DNA from: Candidatus Aenigmatarchaeota archaeon
GTDB lineage: Archaea > Aenigmatarchaeota > Aenigmatarchaeia > JACPZZ01
Assembly: GCA_016195275.1 (NCBI GenBank)
Contig: JACPZZ010000019.1
Span: forward strand, 6,382 to 70,381
Direction: 5' to 3'
Length of the DNA stretch: 64,000 nt
A program made the translations under genes and the position numbers. The notes beneath the pieces are model-generated. The model had not been told where the DNA came from. It ran no database searches and was given only the letters and a program-made list of their open reading frames with translations. How positions within the stretch are numbered: the stretch's first letter is position 1; each line of letters starts with the position of its first letter. Shown here in pieces: positions 1,324 to 45,149 of this stretch.

Positions 1324-2280
1324 ATGATAATCAGGGAAGATTCAAGCACAAACGAAAACCACGGAACATACCCGGGAAAAAGAACTATCGAGCAACTTCT
1401 GAACTACGGCGTTATCAACCTTAACAAGCCGCAAGGCCCGACGAGCCACCAAACGGTTGCGTGGATACGAGACATGCTTGCACTTAACAAAGTTGCGCAC
1501 ACAGGCACCATAGACCCGATGGTCAGCGGCGTTTTAGTCGTCATGTTAAACGAGTCTGTTAAAGCCACAGAATTAATCGGGCACGAAGAAAAAGAATACG
1601 TCGCGCTGATGCATGTTCACAAGCAACTGCCAAAAGAAACGATTGAAAAATCGGTCAGTAAGTTCGTAGGAAAAATCAAGCAAATTCCGCCCCTGAAATC
1701 CGCTGTAGCGCGCCGTGAGCGGGTTCGCGAGATAATGGACATAAAACTGCCGGAAATAAACGGGAAGGACGTTTTGTTAAAAGTCCGTTGTGAAGCGGGC
1801 ACATATATACGCCGTTTGGTTGACGATATTGGTAAAGATTTGAAATGCGGGGCGCACATGGCCGAGTTGCGAAGAACGCGGGCCGGTATTTTTCGCGAGA
1901 GCGGATCTTTCACTATGCACGAATTGAAAGACGCCTGGGAGATTTACAAGGAAACAGGCGACGAGAAGACATTAAGACAAATTATCAGACCTCTGGAAGA
2001 GATTTTGCAGACACTGAAAATAAAACGATTAATAGTCAAGGATTCCGCTGTTAACAAGATCTGCAACGGCGCGGCTGTCGGCGTGAACGGAATCGCACAG
2101 TTTGACGAAAACATAATGAAAGGTGAGAAGGTTGTTATATTGACGCTGAAAGGCGAGGTAATCGCAGCAGCAACGGCGTTGATGAATTCTTCGGAAATTA
2201 AAAAGGCCGAGCGAGGTCTGGCGGCCAAGACGGACAGGGTTTTGATGAGGTTGAATACATACCCTTATTATGTGAACTGA
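1324..2280 (+). CDS. cbf5: Pseudouridine synthase Cbf5 (H/ACA RNP catalytic subunit, TruB family with PUA domain)
   Basis: 318 aa with the catalytic-Asp motif HTGTIDPMVSGVL and a C-terminal PUA-like region (KRLIVKDSAVNKICNGAAV). Confidence 0.9.
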   Translation: MIIREDSSTNENHGTYPGKRTIEQLLNYGVINLNKPQGPTSHQTVAWIRDMLALNKVAHTGTIDPMVSGVLVVMLNESVKATELIGHEEKEYVALMHVHKQLPKETIEKSVSKFVGKIKQIPPLKSAVARRERVREIMDIKLPEINGKDVLLKVRCEAGTYIRRLVDDIGKDLKCGAHMAELRRTRAGIFRESGSFTMHELKDAWEIYKETGDEKTLRQIIRPLEEILQTLKIKRLIVKDSAVNKICNGAAVGVNGIAQFDENIMKGEKVVILTLKGEVIAAATALMNSSEIKKAERGLAAKTDRVLMRLNTYPYYVN

Positions 2281-2289
2281 AAAAAAGAA

Positions 2290-2323
2290 GCGCCGAGGAA
2301 GGGCGGATGACTAAAAGGCAATT
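2290..2323. repeat. 34-bp direct repeat, copy 1: GCGCCGAGGAAGGGCGGATGACTAAAAGGCAATT
   Basis: Identical to 3196-3229. The first 14 nt also occur at 4559-4572. In minus-strand sense it is followed by TTCTTTTTTT. Confidence 0.95.
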
Positions 2324-2390
2324 TATAATTGTGTGCAGGATTTTCTATTTTTTTACCCCAAGAAAGTGTTTACAGCATCAGATTCAGCGA

Positions 2391-2567
2391 TCATCTGTAA
2401 AAGGGCTTCGCATTTGCTTTAAAACTCTTAAAATCAGGAATACATCCACCTGTACCATGTTGCCAAATCGCCCATTCATAAGGTGCCTCTCCACGGTGCT
2501 CACATGGCAAATACCAAAATTGTGGCTGTAACGCTCCAGAACCATCGTTATGGTTCGCATGCTTCAT
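2391..2567 (-). CDS. Small hypothetical ORF (58 aa, below the ORF-track cutoff)
   Basis: Hand translation gives MKHANHNDGSGALQPQFWYLPCEHRGEAPYEWAIWQHGTGGCIPDFKSFKANAKPFYR-stop. It lies downstream of the RelE gene in the same cassette and may be a remnant of a larger gene. Confidence 0.3.
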   Translation of the reverse strand: MKHANHNDGSGALQPQFWYLPCEHRGEAPYEWAIWQHGTGGCIPDFKSFKANAKPFYR

Positions 2568-2606
2568 TTGACTTATATTAAACAGCCGACTATTAAAAAG
2601 ATAAGT

Positions 2607-2867
2607 TTATCTCTCGTAAACTTCTTTTCTGTGCTCGAATCTTAACAGGATAAGTTTATCGCCTTCAACTTTGTAAATAAGTCGGTATGGCTTAACATAA
2701 GTCGACCATTCTCCACTCAAGTCGTATCTCAAAGGTTTGCCAAAGTTGGGGTTTTCAGACACCTTAATTATCTGTTTTTGCAATTTTTCTTTTAGTCCTT
2801 TATCCTTGATTTTTTTTACATCATTTTCAAATTTTTCGGTAGGGACTATGAACTTTATTTCTACCAT
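2607..2867 (-). CDS. RelE/ParE-family type II toxin
   Basis: 86 aa with the pattern ...ENPNFGKPLRYDLSGEWSTYVKPYRLIYKVEGDKLILLRFEHRKEVYER typical of RelE/ParE. It overlaps the upstream antitoxin gene by 7 nt. Confidence 0.8.
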   Translation of the reverse strand: MVEIKFIVPTEKFENDVKKIKDKGLKEKLQKQIIKVSENPNFGKPLRYDLSGEWSTYVKPYRLIYKVEGDKLILLRFEHRKEVYER

Positions 2868-3142
2868 TTCTTAAACACTCTATAAAAAGCTTCTTTGGTA
2901 TAAACTTTGTACCTGTTTTTTGCAATGTCTTCCCATGCCTCTTCAATAAGTTTCAAGGTTCTCAAATCTTCAGCCTTGATTTTTGTATTCAATTTTCTTA
3001 ATACTATCATATCTTTTTTAGTGCTGATGGCAAACACGCTCCCTTCTTTGATCCCAAATTTTTTCCTTACATCAGCGGGTATAACCAACTGGCCCTTTGA
3101 GCTGACTTTTGTTAGTTCTGGAATTTCTATTTCTTTTCTCAT
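2861..3142 (-). CDS. AbrB/SpoVT (MazE-like) antitoxin
   Basis: 93 aa with the swapped-hairpin motif KVSSKGQLVIPADVRKKFGIKEGSVFAI. It is the first gene of a two-gene TA operon. A small inverted repeat (GTAAGA-tat-TCTTAC) and a TATA-like box lie at 3148-3175. Confidence 0.8.
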   Translation of the reverse strand: MRKEIEIPELTKVSSKGQLVIPADVRKKFGIKEGSVFAISTKKDMIVLRKLNTKIKAEDLRTLKLIEEAWEDIAKNRYKVYTKEAFYRVFKKW

Positions 3143-3195
3143 AAAGGTAAGATATTCTTACTTATATATAAATTTGACTGAGATGCAAAAATCAG

Positions 3196-3229
3196 GCGCC
3201 GAGGAAGGGCGGATGACTAAAAGGCAATT
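3196..3229. repeat. 34-bp direct repeat, copy 2
   Basis: Identical to 2290-2323. It ends 4 nt before the ATPase stop codon (3234-3236). In minus-strand sense it is followed by TGATTTTTG. Confidence 0.95.
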
Positions 3230-3233
3230 GATC

Positions 3234-4496
3234 TCAATCGAATCCCAACAGCCACTTGGAAACCGGAAGTACCCTTATTTTTTTGCCTTTAACCGTAATT
3301 TCCTCCTCCTGTTCCATCGTTAGTATAAGGCCTTTGTTTAGCCTGAATTTCTCCATTGCACCAATCAGCCCGCCAATCTCCCTTTCCCGATTATTCCTAT
3401 CCAAAGAGTAGCATACCTGAATCGCCGCGTTAATTTTTGAACCGTTCTTCAAGACAAAGTCACACTCGTTTTTATCCGAATAATAATACGGTTCCATATT
3501 TCGCCTCTTCAACTCTATAAAGACCAAATTTTCCAACACACGACCCTTGTTAGCGGAGAAATTGAACCCACCGAGCAGGCTGAATGCCGGATCCACAACA
3601 TATATCTTTTTTGGAAAATTCAACTGTCTTCTCATGGAAAAATCGAACCTTTGCAACTCAAAAAACAGGTAAGAGTTGCCCAGATAGGAGGCGTATTCTT
3701 TGACTGTTATTGCATTGGATACCCCCAGAACTTTCTTCAATGAATTGTAGGTGAATTGCGAAGATATGTTTGTTGCGAATATATTAAACAGTTCCTTAAT
3801 AACCTTTTGCATCTTTATCGAATATCTTGCGATAATGTCACGGTAAAGAATATTTTCATAAACGGTTCTTACATATTCTTTGTCCTTATTTTTCAGATAT
3901 TCCGGCAAACCGCCTTCTATCATATATTTCTCAAATGCTTTTAACAATATCACTTTTTTTCCAGTTAGATATAGCCAATCTTTAGATGGAGAGATATTTC
4001 TGAATCTGAGATATTCAGAAAAAGAGAACGGGTAAACTTCAAAAGATTTGTATCTTCCGGTGAGCCTCGTCCCTAATTCTTTGCTCAAAAGGGATGCGTT
4101 TGAGCCTGTTATGACGACCTTCTTTCCCTGATCCTGTAATCTTCTCACAAACGTTTCAAACTTATCAATATTTTGTATTTCGTCGAAGAAGTATATCCTC
4201 GAGTTTCCATAGATTTCGACTAGAGCCTCGTTCAGCATTTCGAAGTCCTGCGACCTGAATTCTATGAACCTTTCATCTTCAAAGTTGACATAGCACCAGC
4301 CCTTCTTTTCCTTCATTACCTGTTTTAGAAGGGTAGATTTTCCACTCCTCCTCAGACCGGTAAGAATTATTATCCTATTATCGTTGAACCATTTTAATAT
4401 TCCATCCAAAACGTTCCTTTTCACAGTCTCTTCGATAAGAGTATTTTCATGTTTCTGTTGGGTTACTACCTGCCTAAGGGTTTCCTTAATTATCAT
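3234..4496 (-). CDS. AAA+ ATPase of the COG1373 / DUF4143 family
   Basis: 420 aa with Walker A GLRRSGKST and Walker B-like YFFDEIQ. The overall pattern is that of archaeal 'ATPase (AAA+ superfamily)' proteins with a C-terminal DUF4143-type domain. Confidence 0.8.
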   Translation of the reverse strand: MIIKETLRQVVTQQKHENTLIEETVKRNVLDGILKWFNDNRIIILTGLRRSGKSTLLKQVMKEKKGWCYVNFEDERFIEFRSQDFEMLNEALVEIYGNSRIYFFDEIQNIDKFETFVRRLQDQGKKVVITGSNASLLSKELGTRLTGRYKSFEVYPFSFSEYLRFRNISPSKDWLYLTGKKVILLKAFEKYMIEGGLPEYLKNKDKEYVRTVYENILYRDIIARYSIKMQKVIKELFNIFATNISSQFTYNSLKKVLGVSNAITVKEYASYLGNSYLFFELQRFDFSMRRQLNFPKKIYVVDPAFSLLGGFNFSANKGRVLENLVFIELKRRNMEPYYYSDKNECDFVLKNGSKINAAIQVCYSLDRNNREREIGGLIGAMEKFRLNKGLILTMEQEEEITVKGKKIRVLPVSKWLLGFD

Positions 4497-4545
4497 ACTA
4501 ATTGTTGATTAGCACTAGTATATAAATATACTAATTGTTGATTAG
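4497..4545 (-). promoter_or_regulatory. Promoter of the ATPase gene with two 16-bp direct repeats flanking the TATA box
   Basis: ACTAATTGTTGATTAG occurs at 4497-4512 and 4530-4545. Each copy contains the dyad CTAAT-N5-ATTAG. The repeats bracket TATATAAATAT, about 25-30 nt upstream of the ATG at 4496. Confidence 0.45.
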
Positions 4546-4558
4546 TATAAAAAAACAG

Positions 4559-4789
4559 GCGCCGAGGAAGGGAATTTCAGAGCCTCTTTTAGTTTTTGGG
4601 CATTGAAGGCCTTTTTTCTAAAAAGGGCTTCATTTGAACCCTTACTGAGCTATAGCTGCTAGAAACAGGTGCTTTGCAGCTAGACGCATAATATGTATGC
4701 GTCAGTTTCCGATGCACCTGTTTCGGTCTAGCGTTCGCCCAACCGGATGTCTAAGGCTCCGAACTTAAAGGATTCCTCATCTCGCCGCC
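4559..4789 (-). ncRNA. Structured ~230-nt RNA candidate, class unknown (rod with two distal hairpins)
   Basis: The terminal helix is GGCGGCGAG/CUCGGCGCC, and a chain of further helices follows. Two G.U pairs exist only in the minus-strand reading. An oligo-U run (4549-4557) comes straight after the 3' helix strand. No credible ORF. Confidence 0.5.
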
Positions 4790-4833
4790 TTGATCAGAAT
4801 CAAGCCTTGTTGTCATAGCCTCTCAAGTATCGC

Positions 4834-5016
4834 CTATTTCATCAACTGGTTTGCCAGTCTCAAAATATCCGGCGCATCTGGTTGACCGAAATGGGCCTTG
4901 CCCATTTCAATCGTCATTAACCTGGTTCTGCCATCGATTTGTCTTAACAACAAAACCTCGGCTTTCCTCGGCATATTTAAATTAAGCTGAAAGGTTAATA
5001 AACCTCGGATTTTCAT
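4834..5016 (-). CDS. Hypothetical small protein (60 aa)
   Basis: ORF only, with no recognisable motif. It lies 44 nt upstream of the RNA candidate on the same strand. Confidence 0.3.
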   Translation of the reverse strand: MKIRGLLTFQLNLNMPRKAEVLLLRQIDGRTRLMTIEMGKAHFGQPDAPDILRLANQLMK

Positions 5017-5103: not shown

Positions 5104-5223
5104 ATGGGCTGGGATGAGGAAGGCCTGCGTATTGGAGGTTATGTAATAAACAAAAATCTTTTCCCGGCGTTGTTGATACTTACAGGAATAATAATTCTGA
5201 TTTTAGTATTTTTGCAGCTGTGA
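5104..5223 (+). CDS. Possible 39-aa single-TM micro-protein
   Basis: Hand translation gives MGWDEEGLRIGGYVINKNLFPALLILTGIIILILVFLQL-stop. It ends at the start of the rhodanese-MBL gene. Confidence 0.25.
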   Translation: MGWDEEGLRIGGYVINKNLFPALLILTGIIILILVFLQL

Positions 5224-6839: not shown

Positions 6840-8909
6840 ATGGCAATGGATCCTGTCTGCGGCATGCACGTGGACGAGAAAAACGCAGTTTACAAAAAGG
6901 AAAAAGACGGGCAAACATTTTATTTTTGCAGCGAACGCTGTTTGAAAGAGTTTGAACAGCCGGAAATTGAGTATAGGAATTTGAAACGGACAACTTTGTT
7001 CAGTTCTGTGCTCGCCGGCATGGCTTTGGTTCTTACATATTTTCCTGTTTTGCCTGTACTGCCAAATAACTTCTGGTTGTTCATCTTTGCAACGCCGGTG
7101 CAGTTTATCGGCGGCTGGAGATTCTACAAAGGCATGTGGGACGCGTTGAAAGCGAAATCAGCGAACATGGACACATTAATAGCGACTGGCACATCGGCGG
7201 CCTGGTTATACAGCGTGTTTGTTGTTTTCCTTCCGCAAATTTTCGTGGGCGAGGCTTACTTTGACACGTCCGCGGCAATAATCGCCTTGATACTTGTCGG
7301 CAAGTTGCTGGAAGAAATGGCAAAGGGCAAAGCGTCGGAATCGCTAAGAAAACTTCTGGACTTGAGGCCAAAGACCGCGGTTGTGATAAGAAAGGGAAAA
7401 GAAATTGAAATTCCGGCTGATACGATAGAGATCGGCGACATAATGGTAGTGAAACCGGGCCAATCAATTCCGACAGACGGGGTGATAGTGGAAGGGCACA
7501 CGGAAATAGATGAATCCGTGATAACCGGCGAAAGCCTGCCTGTCACGAGAAAAGAGAGCGACAAAGTTATCGGCGCAACGATAAATAAATCAGGCCTTCT
7601 GAAAATCAGGGCGACGAACGTGGGCGCAGATACCACGCTTGCCCAGATAATAAGCCTGGTCGAAAAGGCGCAGGTTTCCAAGGTGCCGATACAGAGGCTG
7701 GCTGACAGGATTTCCGCATATTTTGTTCCCGCAGTAATCGTAACAGCCCTGGTTTCTTCCGGTGTCTGGTATATTGTTACAGCCAACTTCATCTTTTCAC
7801 TGACAATTGCGATAATGGTACTGATAATAGCCTGCCCCTGCGCATTAGGGCTGGCGACGCCCACTGCGATACTCGTAGGGACAGGCAAGGCTGCTGAGAA
7901 CGGCATATTAATCAGGAACGGCGAGGCTCTTGAGACTGCGCACAAGGTGAACACAATCATTTTCGACAAAACCGGCACGCTTACAAAAGGAAAGCCTTCT
8001 GTTACGGATTTAATAGCGATTAACGGCGATACTAAGGAACTTTTGAAACTTGCAGCGATCGGGGAAAAAGGATCCGAACACCCGTTGGGCGAAGCTATAA
8101 TCAGGAAGGCCGAGGAAACTGGAATAAAGGTCGAGTATGCAAAGTCGTACCATACAATTTCCGGAAAGGGAATAAAATCCGAATACCTAAGACGCGATTT
8201 ATTGATGGGTAATGCGGCGTTAATGAAGGATAGCGATGTGGATGTTTCCCAGTTGGGCGCACAAACGGAAAGGCTTGAGACAGAGGGCAAAACCGCGATA
8301 CTAGTAGTTTATAACAACAAGCCGTTGGGCGTTGTCGGCATTGCGGACACGTTGCAGGATTATTCCAAAGACGCTATAGACGGGTTGAGCGCAAAAGGGA
8401 TAGAGGTGATAATGATCACCGGCGATAATGAGCGCACTGCGGCGAGTATTGCAAAACAAGCAGGAATAGAAAAAGTTTTTGCGAATGTGCTTCCCCAAAA
8501 CAAGGCAGACAAGGTTAAAGAGTTGCAGGCGGAAGGAAAGGTTGTTGCGTTTGTCGGCGACGGAATCAATGATGCGCCTGCACTGGCGCAGGCTGATGTG
8601 GGCATTGCAATCGGCTCAGGTACAGACGTCGCCAAGGAAACGGGAAGTATTGTCCTGATCAAACATGATTTGCGAGACGTTTTCATTGCGATAGATATCA
8701 GCAGGTACGCCATGAAGAAGATAAAACAAAACCTTTTCTGGGCCTTCTTTTATAATACAGCAGGCATACCTGTGGCAGCCGGTTTGCTTTATCCTTATTT
8801 CGGGCTGCTGCTGACACCTTTAATCGCAGCGGCAGCAATGGCTTTCAGCTCATTCTTTGTTGTGGGCAATTCGGTTTTGATGAAAGGCTACAGGCCAAAG
8901 TTTTACTAA
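6840..8909 (+). CDS. copA: Copper-translocating P1B-type ATPase with an N-terminal TRASH/YHS metal-binding domain
   Basis: 689 aa with N-terminal DPVCGMHV...YFCSERC. Core motifs present: CPC (IACPCALGLATP), DKTGTLT, GDGINDAP and TGES. Confidence 0.95.
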   Translation: MAMDPVCGMHVDEKNAVYKKEKDGQTFYFCSERCLKEFEQPEIEYRNLKRTTLFSSVLAGMALVLTYFPVLPVLPNNFWLFIFATPVQFIGGWRFYKGMWDALKAKSANMDTLIATGTSAAWLYSVFVVFLPQIFVGEAYFDTSAAIIALILVGKLLEEMAKGKASESLRKLLDLRPKTAVVIRKGKEIEIPADTIEIGDIMVVKPGQSIPTDGVIVEGHTEIDESVITGESLPVTRKESDKVIGATINKSGLLKIRATNVGADTTLAQIISLVEKAQVSKVPIQRLADRISAYFVPAVIVTALVSSGVWYIVTANFIFSLTIAIMVLIIACPCALGLATPTAILVGTGKAAENGILIRNGEALETAHKVNTIIFDKTGTLTKGKPSVTDLIAINGDTKELLKLAAIGEKGSEHPLGEAIIRKAEETGIKVEYAKSYHTISGKGIKSEYLRRDLLMGNAALMKDSDVDVSQLGAQTERLETEGKTAILVVYNNKPLGVVGIADTLQDYSKDAIDGLSAKGIEVIMITGDNERTAASIAKQAGIEKVFANVLPQNKADKVKELQAEGKVVAFVGDGINDAPALAQADVGIAIGSGTDVAKETGSIVLIKHDLRDVFIAIDISRYAMKKIKQNLFWAFFYNTAGIPVAAGLLYPYFGLLLTPLIAAAAMAFSSFFVVGNSVLMKGYRPKFY

Positions 8910-8987
8910 CAATATAAGAATAACCGATTATTCCCCTGCATTTGCGTGAACTTGGATAAGCTTTCTGGCATAAGCCAGATTAACAAA

Positions 8988-9013
8988 ACACCTAATAATA
9001 ACACCTAATAATC
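8988..9013. repeat. Tandem 13-bp repeat ACACCTAATAAT(A/C), two copies
   Basis: Seen directly in the intergenic region upstream of the 1202-aa surface-protein gene. Confidence 0.8.
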
Positions 9014-9077
9014 ATAGACCTTATTGAATCGTTTTTAAAGCCGCTTTTCATGGGCAGGTAAGTTTTGGGTTTTTACC

Positions 9078-9095
9078 AAGCTTTTGCAAAAGCTT
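9078..9095. promoter_or_regulatory. 18-bp perfect palindrome AAGCTTTTGCAAAAGCTT (candidate operator)
   Basis: Perfect dyad about 30 nt upstream of the ATG at 9123. Confidence 0.4.
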
Positions 9096-9122
9096 TTAAG
9101 TTTAACCCATGATTTAATTACT

Positions 9123-12100
9123 ATGAAATTTTTACACACAGGCTTTCTTATCGGTTTAGCAATTTCAATCTTGTTCGCTTCTGTTTATGCTGTTGCTGAT
9201 GCGAATCCGGACGCAGGACTTAGTTACAAGTCCATTAACGGGGTTGATGTAAAAGATGTTTATTTGGATTACAACCTGGGTTATGCAGACACAGAAGACG
9301 TAAAACTCGATCTGGGGGTTGATCTGACTAATCCAGACAGTCCCAAGTTTATTAGGGGTATAGAAGCAGATCCGGCAGGTCCTGGCTTAACAATAGGATC
9401 CGTAGAGTCTCCTGCTAAGGGTGACGGTCTCACAATAAATCCAATAACCTATGATTACAAAGGTGCCAAAAAGGAAAGGACAATAAATGCTGAAACGTCT
9501 GCTAAAATCACAACTCCCTTCTTTTCCACCACATATTGCACTGGCCAATGGAGCAAATGTTCGTGGGCATCGGAAGATGACGGATATCCGGCAAACGCCA
9601 CTGTGTCTACAGGCGTCAACAAAACCAGCGTGTGGTACAAGTTCGGCTTTGGCGTTAACTTTACTCCCGAGGGTTATACTGTCAAGGCAGTTTACCTGAA
9701 GTTAGATTTCTTTGTTAAGAACGATACAAGTGGTTTACTGGACCCGTCTTTCAAGAATCTGGACAACATTATGGACGGGTATATTGATGTCAGAGTCAGC
9801 GGAAACGGCGGAATAACATACGGGCTTTCTCATGTAATAAACGGAAGGATAAACGAGGCAACCTATATAGTTAATGTTACCGATGACTTGGCATGGACAC
9901 TGTACGGGCTGGGCGATTCACAATTTAAGGTAAATGTAACCTGTTTCAGGAAAGGCTTCGGAAATCCTGTGGATTGCAGGCTTGATTACTTGGGTATGAG
10001 CGCTGTGATAGATGGTGGAATCGGCGACATAGAATTTAATCTAATATCCCACTCCGTAACACCGAACAGCAGTTCTATTGTGCAAGGCGAAATTGCCGAA
10101 GCGAACGTTAGCGTGTTTAGTATGGTTTCGCCGATACAGGTTAACCTATCAGCAGAAGGTTGCCCGCCAGCAAGCTCTTGCATATTTCAGCCGCAAAACG
10201 GGACTACGCCTTTCAGTTCAACGTTCAGGGTAGTTACAATCGTAAATACGCCAAATGGAACTTACAGAATAAATACAACCGCCACAGCGGCAAGCAGCCG
10301 AAAATCCATAGCTGTTTACACGCTTACAGTTCTTCCGCGGCCCAGACCTTTGGTATGCGCATCAAAAATCGACTTATCATTTAACAACAGCCCTGAAACA
10401 GACTTGGGTAAAACAAGCAATGTGTATACTGTAGGTGAGCCGTATAACTTGACTGTAAAAATTTACAATACGAGCAACATGACAATGCCGGACAAGTTGT
10501 TCTTTGTAAATGTAACACAAAATGATACGAATCTAGGTATAACATCCTTAACAACAGGTTCTGATGGCGTATACTATGAAGAAGGCACGATACCAAATGA
10601 TGCAGTAGGCAAATGGCTTTTCGATGCGTTTGTTAACGATACAGGTTGTCCGTATATTTCTGACACTGAGAAATTAATAGTTTTAGGCCAAGGAGCTGTC
10701 ATCAGCAACTGGAACATAAGCACTGACAAGGATGTTTACAATACCAGCGAAACTGCGAAGATAACTGTAAGCGTTGAACATGACGGTGGCGGAATAATAC
10801 AAAATCCTTTCATAGACGTGATAGACCCTGTTAATCAGGTATGGACCGTGCCAATTAAGAGTGGTGCAACCGGATGTTCGGTAGCTGGAGGAACGCAACC
10901 AGCTTCAGCAGGATCCAACGGCATATTCAGGATAACCGGATCAACAAGTCCAGAAGCGGGCGAGCCATCGCCAACGCCCGGAGGCGGCGGCGGTGGAGGC
11001 GGGCCACCCATTGCGCATTGCACGACAACATTCAATGCTGAATTTGATAATACGCGTTTGACAGGAAGTTATACGATAAGGGTATCATCACACCAACTGG
11101 GCTCAAAGGAAAAGCATTTTGAAGTGTTTTCACATCTCCTTGCAGAGAAATTGATACAGCATGACATAGAAGAAATAAAATATATCACCTCCGCGACTGG
11201 TTCTGAAAGAATCGATGATACGGATGTGAATTTCTCCGCAGCGCTTTACAATTCCCATTCAAAGCAATACGTTGCTGCCATTTACGAATTTGGCTCCCGT
11301 GACAACGCTACAAAAATACTCGACGAGGCACTGGAATCTGGTTTGTACGAAGTAAGGCCGATAGGCGTTATAGTCAAAGGCGCAAGCGGTGTTGTGTACA
11401 TGGCAAAGAATAAAGGAAGCGAAGATCCTGTATTTTATGTCTGGGCCAACGGCAACCAGCTTGCATTAATTGTATCAAAGTTTGGAATTTCAGAATTGTC
11501 ATCGCCAAACAGCAAGCTTCTGCCAATACCGAAGATATTTTCAACAACCCCTTCAGTTTTAACACCTCCTGTAAGTTCTGGCGGTGGAGGCGGAGGCGGC
11601 GGTGGCGGCGGACTAATAGAACTGCCGCCGTTAGATGACTGGGGACTGGTCAGTGCATACGTTAAGAAATATCCTTCTGACCTTTATGCAATAACTTCGT
11701 TCACGCCGCCGAAAAGCTGCAGCGGCGAATGGAATAACTGTTCGTTTGTATTTGAAAACGATTCCAAGAGTTCAACAGCTATCCCGCAACTCAACAAAAA
11801 CAAAACCGGAAGGTGGTCAGGGTATAATTTCACATCGCTTCAATATGGGAGAATCAAAAGTGTAATTCTCAGGGCTGATTTTTCAGCAAGTAACAACACG
11901 CTGGACAGCCTGACAGCGGTCGATGTAAACCAGGACGGTGTGGTAGATATCTTTGACGCAGAAATAGTTGGCGAAAACTTTGGGAAGACTGCCAATGATG
12001 CCAATAATCCGAGGGCTGATGTCAACAGAGACGGCGTTGTGGACGACCAGGATATATCGTTAGTGTCTGATAGCTTCAGGAAATCTGTGCCAAGCCCGTT

Positions 12101-43118: not shown

Positions 43119-43320
43119 GCTGTTAAACGCCCCTGAATACTTGGAAGGGCTGAGTTTTAGTTCAACGTTCGGCGAAGCCGAAAAACTCAAAGTTGAGTTC
43201 TCGCATGTAAACTTCTGTGAAGCAGACTATAATTCGTTAGGGAAGGGGGCGTCCGTTTTTTTGCTTCTTTTATTTCCTACGTTCTTTTAAACTCTTCAGT
43301 TACAGGATTAAAAGAAATAA

Positions 43321-43687
43321 CTACTTTTCTATCTTATGGTTCTCATCTTTCACAAATTTATCTCTAAACACCGGATATAATGCTGTTAATCTTTGCTGTC
43401 CACCAATTGATCGGTAGATTCGGTTCGGTGTGTTCTTTTTTCCCCAACACCTATGTGATGTGATTTAGCATTTAAACTGCCGTTTCTCCATAAAAGATAC
43501 GAACCAATAGGGTATCCTCTGTAGATGGAATCAAAAAGGCTCTTACTTTAGAGTTACTCCATACAAAAGGTCTTTGTAAATCAGGTAAGCCTAAATCAAT
43601 ATACCCAAATAATTGTTCAAGATGGCCACTTAATGGATTAAACAAAGCAGTTTTATCTGAATATTTGCCGTCATGTTGATACATCAT
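43321..43687 (-). pseudogene. DUF262 (GmrSD/ParB-like nuclease family) N-terminal remnant, frameshifted and truncated
   Basis: The 71-aa ORF carries the DUF262 motif LPDLQRPFVW. A second frame downstream reads IGGQQRLTALYPVFRDKFVKDENHKIEK-stop, which contains the family's DGQQR motif. Confidence 0.6.
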
Positions 43688-44157
43688 TTAACAACATTCT
43701 TAAATTCCATTCTGATTTCATTTATCTTTTTCTCATTGAGTTTAAGTAAGATTGACTTGCATTTTACTAAAAACTCAGGAGCATTCTTTACCATTTTATT
43801 ATATTGTTCATCTGGAACTGTTCTGTCAATGTAATATTGAGAATCTATCCTTGCTTTCAAAGAATCTTCTATGAAATCAAAATCTTCTTCGCTAAGAAAT
43901 TCTCTGAGAAATCTCTTTGCGAACGCTATTGTGCAAGAATGAATTTCACATTTTATGCCTATTTTTGTCAAAACTGAGTAAAGCGAAAAATAGAGAGTAT
44001 AATATGCGGTTGAGATTTTCCAATCTTTTATTACATTTACCCTCATCGACTCCAAAGCTTCTTCAGCCTTCTTGCTATACGCTTCTGCGAGATTTGAATT
44101 AGGTTCAATTAAACTCAAGCCTTCTCTCTTTCCCACACACCATTTTATCTTATCCAC
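43684..44157 (-). CDS. HEPN-domain protein (toxin of a HEPN/MNT pair)
   Basis: 157 aa and all-helical. The segment ...AEAYSKKAEEALESMR...KISTAYYTLYFSLYS...KARIDSQYY is HEPN-like. It overlaps the MNT gene by 8 nt. Confidence 0.75.
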   Translation of the reverse strand: MDKIKWCVGKREGLSLIEPNSNLAEAYSKKAEEALESMRVNVIKDWKISTAYYTLYFSLYSVLTKIGIKCEIHSCTIAFAKRFLREFLSEEDFDFIEDSLKARIDSQYYIDRTVPDEQYNKMVKNAPEFLVKCKSILLKLNEKKINEIRMEFKNVVK

Positions 44158-44740
44158 ATTTCAGCACCTTTTGGATAAACAGCTCCGTATTTTTAAAAAC
44201 TATGTGGTTCTTTAATACTTCTTTTATTAGGATATCTTGGTTTACATTCTTCTCAAATGTTTTTAATGGATAACACTTTATGTTTATTTCAATCCCTAAA
44301 TTTCTTGAAACTTTCTTGATTTCTTCTTTTTTATAGTCTCCAACTACAAAAATGTCTAAATCAGATTCTTTGTTATACATTCCTTTTGCATAACTTCCAA
44401 AAATAATACCAATTCCATTAATAAACGGGCTTATTTTTTCCATAACCTCTTTCACTAGAAGATTTTTCTCCATAAATGCAATTGATTTGTATTGCTCGAC
44501 AAATGTAAGATATCTATTGCTTAATTCGTTTATTTTTAGCTTATAAGACTTGATTTTACCCTTTACTTTTGATTCTATGATTCCTTTATTTTCTAAATCT
44601 TCAAGAATTAGCTGTGCTGTTCGCGGGCTTATTTTAAGCAATTTCTCAACTTCTCTTATATAATATTCCTTATCAAATCCATCCGTAAATAAAGAAATGA
44701 TTCGTAAGCCATTCTCAGTTATGTTTATTTTATTATACAT
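44150..44740 (-). CDS. Nucleotidyltransferase (MNT) with an N-terminal winged-helix domain
   Basis: IIFGSYAKGMYNKESDLDIFVVGD is the GS...DxD minimal-NTase motif. The N-terminal wHTH is ISPRTAQLILEDLENKGIIES. Confidence 0.8.
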   Translation of the reverse strand: MYNKINITENGLRIISLFTDGFDKEYYIREVEKLLKISPRTAQLILEDLENKGIIESKVKGKIKSYKLKINELSNRYLTFVEQYKSIAFMEKNLLVKEVMEKISPFINGIGIIFGSYAKGMYNKESDLDIFVVGDYKKEEIKKVSRNLGIEINIKCYPLKTFEKNVNQDILIKEVLKNHIVFKNTELFIQKVLKCG

Positions 44741-45149
44741 ATGTATTATTTAGAATACAGCTACTATTTATATCTTCCGACCCCGATCGTATAGTTTCGT
44801 GACGCCCCCCTTCCCGTTTCCTCAATTTAGCGAGAGTGCAACGTGCCGACCGAACGAAGTGAGGGAGAGTTCAGGCGACGAGCCTATTTTTTAACCTTTG
44901 TGAGCAAGAAATCCCACACCTTTTAAGAATGGGAGTATGTCACTAACGTCCCTATATGCATCAAATGCAAAAACTATCGGATAGAGATTAGGTGTCGCTA
45001 ACTTTACAGCTTAGAAGCAAATTCCCTTATAAACCCAGGAACAAGCTTATAAGTCTGTGACATTATTCTAGTCTAGACATTGGGAAAGGAGTTTCTCGTT
45101 CTGAGGAATTTTTTGCCGTGTCATATAGGAGAAAAAGGTGAATATAGGA

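Follow-up and report, generated by a model that had tools for sequence, protein, structure and literature searches.

A tandem array of two integrase-less units, probably integrated at a tRNA-Ser-like gene, in an Aenigmatarchaeota genome

The stretch of DNA analysed here, called the window, covers 64 kb of contig JACPZZ010000019.1 from a Candidatus Aenigmatarchaeota archaeon (GCA_016195275.1). Near its left end, between cbf5 and the gene of a tRNA-Ser-like RNA, two small groups of genes lie stacked and are separated by short direct repeats. The segment 2290-4572 is probably a tandem array of two integrase-less mini-elements integrated at an attachment (att) site, which would be formed by the 3' end of the tRNA-Ser-like RNA gene. 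The array would be an archaeal miniature of a known phenomenon, the accretion of integrase-less elements at a tRNA-type att site. As in known integrated elements, the direct repeats correspond to the 3' part of the RNA, an intact RNA is regenerated on the proximal side, and relatives have empty or differently filled sites at the same place.

Repeats and units beside the RNA gene

The direct repeat is a 34-mer, GCGCCGAGGAAGGGCGGATGACTAAAAGGCAATT, with exact copies at 2290-2323 and 3196-3229 and no further copy at up to three mismatches in the window; the count was likewise zero in 100 shuffles. Its first 14 nt, the core GCGCCGAGGAAGGG, occur exactly at 2290, 3196, and 4559 and only there in the 64 kb, while in shuffled controls, with up to two mismatches allowed, the matches averaged 0.37 and never reached three. 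An initial annotation of this DNA, made from its letters and a list of open reading frames (ORFs), had placed all of these copies exactly. It had also described a CAG prefix common to copies 2 and 3 of the core and an oligo-T run after each of the three core copies on the minus strand, and both are present in the sequence.

Copy 1 of the 34-mer (2290-2323, minus strand) consists of the core at 2290-2303 and a 20-nt element-side arm at 2304-2323, and copy 2 (3196-3229, minus strand) of the core at 3196-3209 and the arm at 3210-3229. The third core copy (4559-4572, minus strand) is the working 3' end of the RNA gene and is composed of CCCUU (3' strand of the T stem), CCUCGGC (3' strand of the acceptor stem), G73, and an additional C. 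Across about 278 kb of related loci the arm, AAUUGCCUUUUAGUCAUCCG, was seen only beside core copies, and in the window the repeat occurs at this locus only. A generic terminator motif, found downstream of many unrelated housekeeping genes, is what the initial annotation had set against integration, and within the window and these related loci the repeat does not behave as one. A scan with the first 20 nt of the 34-mer through contigs of species-representative genomes, among which the genome of the window is not included, returned 4 chance matches only, from high-GC bacteria, and viral-sequence scans with the arm plus core and with a block of the RNA gave no match.

The repeat was also found in assemblies independent of the contig. 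Logan unitigs, which derive from raw read sets, end inside the 34-mer: one of them (L001) stops at window position 2319 and another (L002) begins at 3200, and the two encode the window's exact Cbf5 and ATPase proteins. Breaks of this kind are the behaviour of a k=31 assembly graph at a true repeat, and the repeat is therefore present in independent raw-read assemblies. An assembly artefact is unlikely, as the joins of cbf5 to the repeat and of the ATPase gene to the RNA gene are each contained in independent unitigs. The joins on the side of the toxin-antitoxin (TA) unit rest on the metagenome-assembled genome (MAG), and a different resolution of the graph would amount to the excised-circle state.

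The left flank of the array is the conserved cbf5 gene (1324-2280, plus strand; Pfam DKCLD, TruB_N, TruB_C_2, and PUA), whose orthologues are 73-85% identical. Between cbf5 and copy 1 lies what appears to be the ancestral trailer of the RNA gene, or B' arm (2281-2289, minus strand), an oligo-T tract on the RNA strand that runs into the cbf5 stop codon. Unit 1 includes a spacer at 2324-2606 (minus strand) containing two overlapping 58-aa ORFs, with no counterpart in the related loci L011 and L020. It also carries a RelE/ParE-family toxin gene (2607-2867, minus strand; PF05016, 6.4e-12, 46.3 bits against a cut-off of 23; TIGR02385, 2.1e-07) and an AbrB/MazE-family antitoxin gene (2861-3142, minus strand; PF04014, 6.7e-11, 42.4 bits against a cut-off of 24.7; TIGR01439, 1.6e-13). 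The antitoxin gene is upstream of the toxin gene and overlaps its start by 7 nt. The TA promoter/operator and the predicted P' arm of unit 1 occupy 3143-3195 (minus strand), with a palindrome, GTAAGATATTCTTAC, at 3147-3161, a TATA-like box, TTATATATAA, at 3162-3171, and CTGATTTTTGCA adjoining the core. With its domains, gene order, overlap, and promoter palindrome, the pair is predicted to form a type II TA system.

Unit 2 carries a single gene for an AAA_14+DUF4143 ATPase (3234-4496, minus strand; PF13173, 7e-37; PF13635, 2e-21). The protein also matches, over its full length, the model PDC-S01 (PDLC04787; 9.1e-114 over residues 20-417) of PADLOC, a library of defence-system protein models in which the PDC-S01 family is itself only a candidate anti-phage family. 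The ATPase is thus a candidate defence (anti-phage) protein. Its promoter and a short putative P' arm lie at 4497-4558 (minus strand), with a TATA-like stretch at about 4519-4530 and CTGTTTTTTTA adjoining the core; two 18-nt direct repeats, each bearing the palindrome CTAATTGTTGATTAG, are found in this promoter at 4495-4512 and 4528-4545 (minus strand).

The units measure 0.9 and 1.3 kb and are all oriented like the RNA gene. Each has its own TATA-like box and palindromic operator and ends at the oligo-T after the core, and each is therefore a self-contained transcription unit, so that the promoters predicted by the initial annotation were recovered, together with their operators. Its naming of the genes held for AbrB, RelE, and the AAA+ ATPase, which are recognised by Pfam or NCBIfam; the 58-aa ORF that it had added to them has no family match in Pfam, NCBIfam or PADLOC. 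The greater AT-richness it had noticed is also evident, with 35.1% and 37.5% GC in the units, 46.8% in cbf5, and 45.0% in the window as a whole.

A HEPN-MNT pair, in which HEPN is a nuclease-type toxin domain and MNT a minimal nucleotidyltransferase antitoxin, is located elsewhere in the window (43684-44740; GC 32% and 28%). It is surrounded by a 14-nt inverted repeat at 43240-43253 and 44801-44814 (GGGAAGGGGGCGTC and GACGCCCCCCTTCC, 86% complementary) and is probably another small foreign islet. The resemblance of this inverted repeat to the core, suggested by the initial annotation, comes down to a shared G-rich heptamer, and the two are unrelated.

The tRNA-Ser-like anchor RNA

The RNA gene that anchors the array has 414 nt (4559-4972, minus strand). 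The 5' strand of its acceptor stem is at 4966-4972 and its anticodon-like arm at 4751-4768, and a long variable arm and a T arm are present as well. Its extent was obtained by aligning the intergenic RNA of eight orthologues, which share invariant blocks between variable hairpins. The initial annotation had assigned to it only 4559-4789 (about 230 nt) and had paired the core with 4775-4789. The orthologue alignment corrects both, with the core pairing instead with GCCGAGG at 4966-4972, in the acceptor stem, and with AAGGG at 4641-4645, in the T stem. The core at 4559-4572 is identical to the core in all eight orthologues.

The acceptor stem has 7 bp (GCCGAGG/CCUCGGC) and is followed by G73. 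The T arm of the window is AAGGG-UUCAAAU-CCCUU, and the orthologues read GUAAGGGUUCAAAU-CCCUU, a canonical T arm. The stem of the variable arm covaries, with GC, AU, UA, and GU pairs, and the 3' part of the RNA gave a fold z-score of -5.5. Upstream of the RNA 5' end, at a distance of about 23-30 nt, a TATA-like box, TTTATTAA, was read by eye at 4995-5002 (minus strand), and a comparable box was read by eye in both orthologues inspected there (L007 and L008).

A scan of viral contigs provided a further match. The 24-nt stretch GGGTTCAAATCCCTTCCTCGGCGC, reaching from the T arm to the 3' terminus of the RNA, is identical in contig L022. There it belongs to a 5'-truncated class-II tRNA gene, whose D arm, variable arm, and anticodon loop were read by eye as those of tRNA-Ser (GGA), and which ARAGORN labels as tRNA-Thr. 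Directly after this gene comes an ORF that extends through the 3' end of the tRNA and has a match to archaeal XerA-type tyrosine recombinases (1.5e-17). From the acceptor stem and T arm at the ends of the anchor RNA, and from this identity, the 14-nt core thus corresponds to tRNA positions 61-73 plus one base. Judged by its sequence, the shared core, O (CCCUUCCUCGGCGC), is a classical att location, copy 1 of the 34-mer is an attR-type junction with displaced tRNA positions 61-73 plus 1 as its core part, and copy 2 is a hybrid junction of unit 2 with unit 1.

Casposons produce duplications of 14-15 bp, and some of them (family 2) target tRNA 3' ends. A 14-nt core at such an end fits what is generally known of family-2 casposons, and the repeats might be read as target-site duplications of a transposon- or casposon-like element. 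This reading is extremely improbable, because the units are flanked by no terminal inverted repeats and measure only 0.9-1.3 kb, and because none of the 50 screened window ORFs, which cover most of the large ones, encodes Cas1, PolB or a transposase.

Two insertions within the RNA gene have the form of bulge-helix-bulge (BHB) introns. The first is in the T loop, at tRNA position 59/60 (4574-4632, minus strand), and in the window it reads AAGGG UUCA AAU GAAGCC ... GGCUC UGAA AUU CCCUU; at the same site of L018 and L020 the outer and central helices are as in the window, and the inner helices (GAAC/GUUC and AACC/GGUU) differ yet pair. The second (S2/S3; 4878-4916, minus strand) is located between two invariant blocks and reads ACCA GGUU AAU GAC ... 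GUC AACC AGA UG in both the window and L008; the 76-nt insertion of L028 at this site has only a loose BHB fit (central helix 3/4). A cut after the second bulge nucleotide restores exactly the sequences of the intron-less orthologues, UUCAAAU and GGUUAAAUGCGCC. The position of the second intron, between two invariant blocks, suggests that those blocks belong to a functional mature RNA.

Some other readings of these sequences were discarded. The 59-nt stretch ahead of the core was considered as an element scar and rejected as being the BHB intron, and the distal 34-mers are excluded as alternative 3' exons, as the 7 nt ahead of their cores cannot make the UGAA helix and bulge of the BHB. The likeness of the reverse complement of the arm to the end of the T-loop intron (ACTAAAAG..GC..AATT) was estimated as a coincidence of about 1 in 50 and was not relied on. 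A general BHB scan, too permissive for setting boundaries, found no recognisable BHB around the conserved D-loop insert.

After removal of these two introns, parts would remain that do not fit a tRNA. The RNA keeps invariant sequence amounting to about 110 nt or more around the D loop, together with a hairpin that bears K-turn-like motifs. A K-turn is a kinked helix bound by L7Ae-type proteins, and two hairpins of the RNA carry the K-turn-like motifs CUGA and (R)AUGAGG. The best anticodon arm, UUAAG/CUUAG, leaves a loop of 8 nt, UU(Y)(G/U)GAGC, and not of 7 nt; a GGA or UGA triplet in this anticodon-like loop would read serine codons. An intron at position 59/60, which is not a canonical one, has already been described in DPANN pre-tRNA, namely the ARMAN-2 pre-tRNA-Cys, and the anchor shares with the multi-intron archaeal pre-tRNAs the canonical helix-bulge-helix-bulge-helix both at 59/60 and at the second site (PMC5829648). 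Unlike them, it retains after intron removal invariant blocks found in no tRNA, including GGCAGAACCAGGUUAA|AUGCGCCGGAUAU and AUAGGCGAUACUUGAGAGGCUAUGACAACAAGGCUUGAUUCUGA.

Standard tools did not recognise the gene. ARAGORN made no tRNA call on it, and Rfam gave no match at gathering thresholds. At E<=10 (306-561 nt searched) there was no RNase P, signal recognition particle, group I intron or tRNA match, and a weak tRNA-Sec alignment reached 17.7 bits. An arbitrary in-silico splice was called a class-II tRNA by ARAGORN, which illustrates cloverleaf potential only. An identification as RNase P RNA was dropped in view of the Rfam result at E<=10 and because a co-linear motif resemblance failed a shuffle test, in which 11 of 300 shuffles scored at least as well as the local alignment to E. 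coli M1 RNA. C/D-box and H/ACA readings were abandoned because the candidate boxes sit in variable hairpins. With a class II archaeal tRNA-Ser the RNA shares the 7-bp acceptor stem with G73, the canonical T arm, the long variable arm, and BHB-bounded insertions; it does not share a 7-nt anticodon loop, a D arm that is uninterrupted after splicing, or detection by tRNA models. Because the ends are tRNA-like while the anticodon loop, the D region, and the tool calls do not fit, the RNA is named only tRNA-Ser-like. It is a more unusual object than the array itself and the part that is most likely new.

A metagenome scan with a 19-nt invariant block of the RNA returned one true orthologue (L028) and five chance matches. 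In L028 and in L008 (10999-11355) the RNA gene is inverted as a whole with respect to cbf5 and has a different TATA-containing upstream region; the inversion takes in essentially the RNA gene alone. A 60-aa ORF at 4834-5016 (minus strand), inside the RNA gene and its promoter, is almost certainly no gene. The neighbours of the RNA gene on the other side are a rhodanese-MBL gene and an ORF for a hydrophobic membrane peptide of 39 aa (5104-5222, plus strand; MGWDEEGLRIGGYVINK...), which lies immediately upstream of the RNA promoter, belongs to no Pfam family, and is conserved in L011, L014, and L020.

The same locus and the ATPase unit in relatives

The neighbourhoods of cbf5 were compared in seven relatives from the Aenigmarchaeota (DPANN), with Cbf5 identities of 73-85%. 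Identical content in all of them is the outcome that the initial annotation had set against integration, and their content is not identical: three sites are empty (L007, L014, and L017), L011 has another array, and L020 has the TA unit only. In the empty sites a short oligo-T trailer lies between the RNA core and the cbf5 stop, which is 10-37 nt away. The flank of copy 1 in the window, TTCTTTTTTTCAGTTCACATA, matches the trailer of the empty site of L014, TTATTTTTTTTCAGCTCATATA, and copy 1 therefore represents the displaced original end.

In L011 the order on the RNA strand is the RNA core, the TA promoter block as in the window, AbrB, and RelE. RelE is followed by AATAGCCTTTTAGTCACCCG and then by CCCTTCCTCGGCAC, a copy of the 34-mer (11504-11537) that is identical at 31 of 34 positions, in surrounding DNA that is about 73% identical. 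This copy has no oligo-T and continues directly into the next ORF, of 147 aa, beyond which are a decayed core, CGCTTCTCGGCGC (one mismatch and one deletion), the trailer, and cbf5. L020 has the TA unit alone, adjoining the RNA, with no distal copy. The TA promoter block is thus located directly against the RNA 3' end in L011, and partly so in L020, while in the window the ATPase unit lies between the RNA and the TA unit. In a tree of concatenated Adk, EMC3, and Cbf5, the empty-site L017 is the sister of L011 (90% amino acid identity), and the L017 trailer and the flank of the outermost L011 core are orthologous. The difference between L017 and L011 therefore lies exactly between core copies, which fits either a gain or a loss there.

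The identity of the window's TA unit is 72.6% to that of L011 (76% for cbf5) and 71.2% to that of L020 (69.8% in the cbf5 comparison). As this divergence is about that of the host genes, the TA unit is old and has long been inherited vertically.

These loci also bear on the possibility that the repeat is a functional 3'-end module of the cassette transcripts, a tRNA-like 3' fragment with oligo-U acting as terminator or processing signal. The oligo-T after each copy on the coding strand and the better conservation of the 34-mer than of its surroundings would agree with such a role, which is very unlikely all the same. The L011 copy has no oligo-T and runs into the next ORF, the repeat is present at one locus only within the sequence covered, and such a role would account neither for the empty sites nor for the identity of the repeat with the 3' end of the RNA itself. 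Folding of the 34-mer in its context was not better than in shuffles (z-scores of -1.65, -1.39, and +0.45), the hairpin of 4 bp is not significant, and no structured terminator hairpin was found by folding at the repeats.

Genes for RVT_1 reverse transcriptases were encountered in the ribosomal-protein/secY cluster a few kb upstream of cbf5 in L008 (3801-4985) and L014 (1146-2228).

The ATPase is widespread outside this locus. DPANN archaea and Thermoplasmata contain thousands of homologues with identities of about 70%, many of which are on contigs of 1.3-3 kb. The closest copy, in L023, is 92% identical, while housekeeping proteins of its host genome are about 79% identical to those of the window. 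L023 is another locus of the MAG that has the empty cbf5/RNA site of L014. There, a pair of genes for an MNT nucleotidyltransferase and the ATPase is found, within 7265-9346 (GCA_016202815.1, JACQNZ010000008.1), between the 3' end of a tRNA gene and its partial copy: the 3' end of an intron-containing tRNA is at 9333-9346 (minus strand), and a 24/26 copy of the T arm and acceptor strand is at 7265-7290. The two mismatches of this distal copy match the L031 version of that tRNA.

In L031 (2412-5058; GCA_053529875.1, JAIYFF010000054.1) the order is a tRNA-Glu gene with a D-loop insertion, a 60-aa ORF, a methyltransferase gene, an exact repeat at 3625-3637, and an ATPase gene whose product is 86% identical to the window's. 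The ATPase thus follows the second copy of CCCGTTGGGAGCA, which constitutes the last 13 nt of the tRNA-Glu gene 1.1 kb upstream, beginning at the 3' strand of the T stem. From the arrays of L023 and L031, integrase-less islets with tRNA 3'-end repeats are therefore recurrent in the clade, with the ATPase as a frequent passenger. In both L023 and L031 the tRNA-Glu gene has a D-loop insertion, of a different length in each, and ARAGORN mis-calls or misses these genes. Two tRNA genes of L023 enclose an ORF with a LAGLIDADG_3 domain (2.5e-07; 9573-10406), which extends into the tRNA-Glu gene.

The promoter block of the ATPase, with its two palindrome-bearing 18-nt repeats, is kept in four genomes (window 4495-4545, L023 7945-8000, L024 4765-4832, and L031 3740-3792). 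Only the promoter and the ORF are shared among the ATPase units, and everything outside them differs. The pair of 18-nt repeats is likely an operator that marks the true edge of the mobile ATPase unit.

Proposed integration at a tRNA-type site

From the repeats, the conserved arm, the empty and variant sites, and the like junctions at other tRNA genes, a series of recombinase-catalysed events through circular intermediates may be reconstructed. The 3' end of the RNA gene would serve as attB, with a crossover at or just 5' of the junction of T loop and T stem. The integrating circle would carry arm-O-arm', and each event would rebuild an intact RNA 3' end beside the gene and push the previous O outward, where it would then be preceded by the 20-nt arm of the unit. 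The resulting layout on the RNA strand would be RNA - O - P'2 (ATPase) P - O - P'1 (AbrB-RelE) P - O - trailer (B') - cbf5. The TA unit would have come first, entering in a common ancestor of the window genome, L011, and L020, and the ATPase unit later, on the RNA-proximal side; this order is proposed because L011 and L020 have the TA promoter block directly at the RNA and because the ATPase is 92% identical to its closest copy when housekeeping proteins are about 79% identical. The recombinase would presumably be a tyrosine integrase, acting in trans from elsewhere in the genome, from a virus or from a plasmid, or since lost.

This scheme predicts particular junctions. A site without the ATPase unit should have the RNA core joined to CTGATTTTTGCATCTCAG, and an empty site should have it joined to TTCTTTTTTTCAGTTCAC. 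The junction of an excised circle should read AATTGCCTTTTAGTCATCCG followed by the core and by CTGTTTTTTTATAC or, alternatively, CTGATTTTTGCA. Serial site-specific integration at an RNA-gene att site had been put forward by the initial annotation, and the empty and variant sites of relatives support it, with the recombination itself reconstructed from them.

Several observations weigh against such integration. As the initial annotation had remarked, no integrase or other recombinase accompanies the array: the screened ORFs of the window include no integrase, resolvase or transposase, and a cognate recombinase was found neither in them nor within the units. A tblastn search found no homologue of the L022 integrase in the window, and no integrase fragment was detectable in the units. 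No free attP, circle junction or relative of these units with an integrase turned up in scans of viral, genome, and metagenome sequences. That the two 34-mers are 100% identical fits local duplication or gene conversion equally well. The ATPase units of L023, L024, and L031 are without the 20-nt arm, and because only promoter and ORF are shared, the ATPase gene may travel by another route and merely land in such islets. The TA unit, for its part, may no longer move.

Some of these observations would be accommodated by local duplication without a site-specific recombinase. An ancestral array of the form RNA-O-(TA)-P-O would have been duplicated by unequal or slipped recombination between cores, and the RNA-proximal TA copy would then have been replaced by the ATPase gene through illegitimate recombination, leaving the repeats as passive scars. 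The 34-mers of the window, identical although the L011 orthologue differs at 3 positions, the ATPase units elsewhere without the arm, and the screened ORFs without a recombinase all favour this course of events, which is nevertheless considered unlikely. It requires two extra illegitimate junctions, no farther than about 10 nt from the core and 4 nt from the arm, and leaves unexplained the clean empty sites, the core copy that ends the outermost 147-aa unit of L011, and the 3'-end repeats around small islets at other tRNA genes in relatives.

An integron-like platform, which the initial annotation had offered as an alternative, would have the RNA 3' end acting like attI and the 34-mer like attC, with a host integrase encoded elsewhere that shuffles single circular cassettes. 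The array does resemble an integron in its ordered, co-oriented units, which are very small (one a single gene, the other a two-gene TA operon), in the conserved 34-nt recombination-site-like sequence at their 3' ends, and in having the newest unit nearest the anchor. It differs in that no integrase gene (intI) adjoins the anchor, which is an RNA gene, the cassettes have their own promoters and operators, and the 34-mer has no attC-like imperfect palindrome or structure, its fold being no better than those of shuffles. With just 2-3 units per array and a different arm at the tRNA-Glu array, such a platform seems quite unlikely.

Accretion at a tRNA-type att site, the explanation preferred here, has parallels in other organisms. 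In streptococci, integrase-less DNA flanked by att sites is stacked at one site among integrative and conjugative elements (ICE), integrative and mobilizable elements (IME), and cis-mobilizable elements (CIME), and is mobilised, if at all, in trans. The window array is similar in having integrase-less DNA between att sites in tandem with other units. The streptococcal elements, in contrast, are bacterial and are usually remains of larger elements beside an intact ICE or IME, and no such intact partner is present in the 64 kb.

In archaea, both tandem integration and the loss of the integrase gene have been described for integrated elements (PMC8371274), and this source also refers to SSV-type "suicidal" integrases at archaeal tRNA genes (PMC8371274, citing She et al. 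2001). Like these elements, the window units have a tRNA 3' end as target and lie between direct repeats of part of the tRNA, and the recombinase ORF of L022 reads straight through the identical tRNA-Ser 3' sequence. Unlike them, the units are very small, the known cases being proviruses or plasmids that measure at least several kb and are bordered by integrase fragments.

Among published cases, the nearest parallel is found in Dehalococcoides, whose tandem islands at the tmRNA gene ssrA have a direct repeat of 20 bp, a conserved motif of 15 bp on the element side, and an insertion point at the T loop, and some of them have no integrase and have been proposed to be cis-mobilizable (PMC3146451). 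The likeness to the window extends to the stacking of islands with accessory cargo downstream of one small-RNA gene, to the short 3'-end repeat (20 bp there, 14 nt here) with an element-side motif (15 bp there, 20 nt here), to an insertion point placed at the T loop, and to the existence of integrase-less members (PMC3146451). Most ssrA islands, however, are many kb long and carry a six-gene integration module with the serine recombinase DsiB (PMC3146451), whereas the window units have 0.9 and 1.3 kb, no recombinase, a DPANN host, and a tRNA-Ser-like anchor.

A more far-reaching combination of these ideas is rather unlikely but would connect the RNA with the mobility of the units. The anchor would be a new class of stable RNA derived from tRNA-Ser and limited to one clade of Aenigmarchaeota, with a core of about 250 nt that has the acceptor stem, T arm, and variable arm, invariant K-turn-like domains, and BHB splicing. 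The units, at this anchor and at other tRNA 3' ends, would be moved by a dedicated recombinase acting in trans, as an archaeal, tRNA-anchored counterpart of integrons for defence cassettes.

If integration at the RNA gene is the correct explanation, DPANN archaea with their tiny genomes would keep and exchange defence and addiction genes as kb-sized, integrase-less units at tRNA-type att sites, three of which are recognised here in three related genomes. Accessory genes and their recombinases could then be sought in uncultivated archaea by a simple sequence signature, in which tRNA positions 61-73 are repeated in combination with a conserved arm. The analysis also leads to the re-annotation of a conserved RNA of 290-420 nt that standard tRNA and Rfam tools have missed, with clear BHB introns and with invariant domains.

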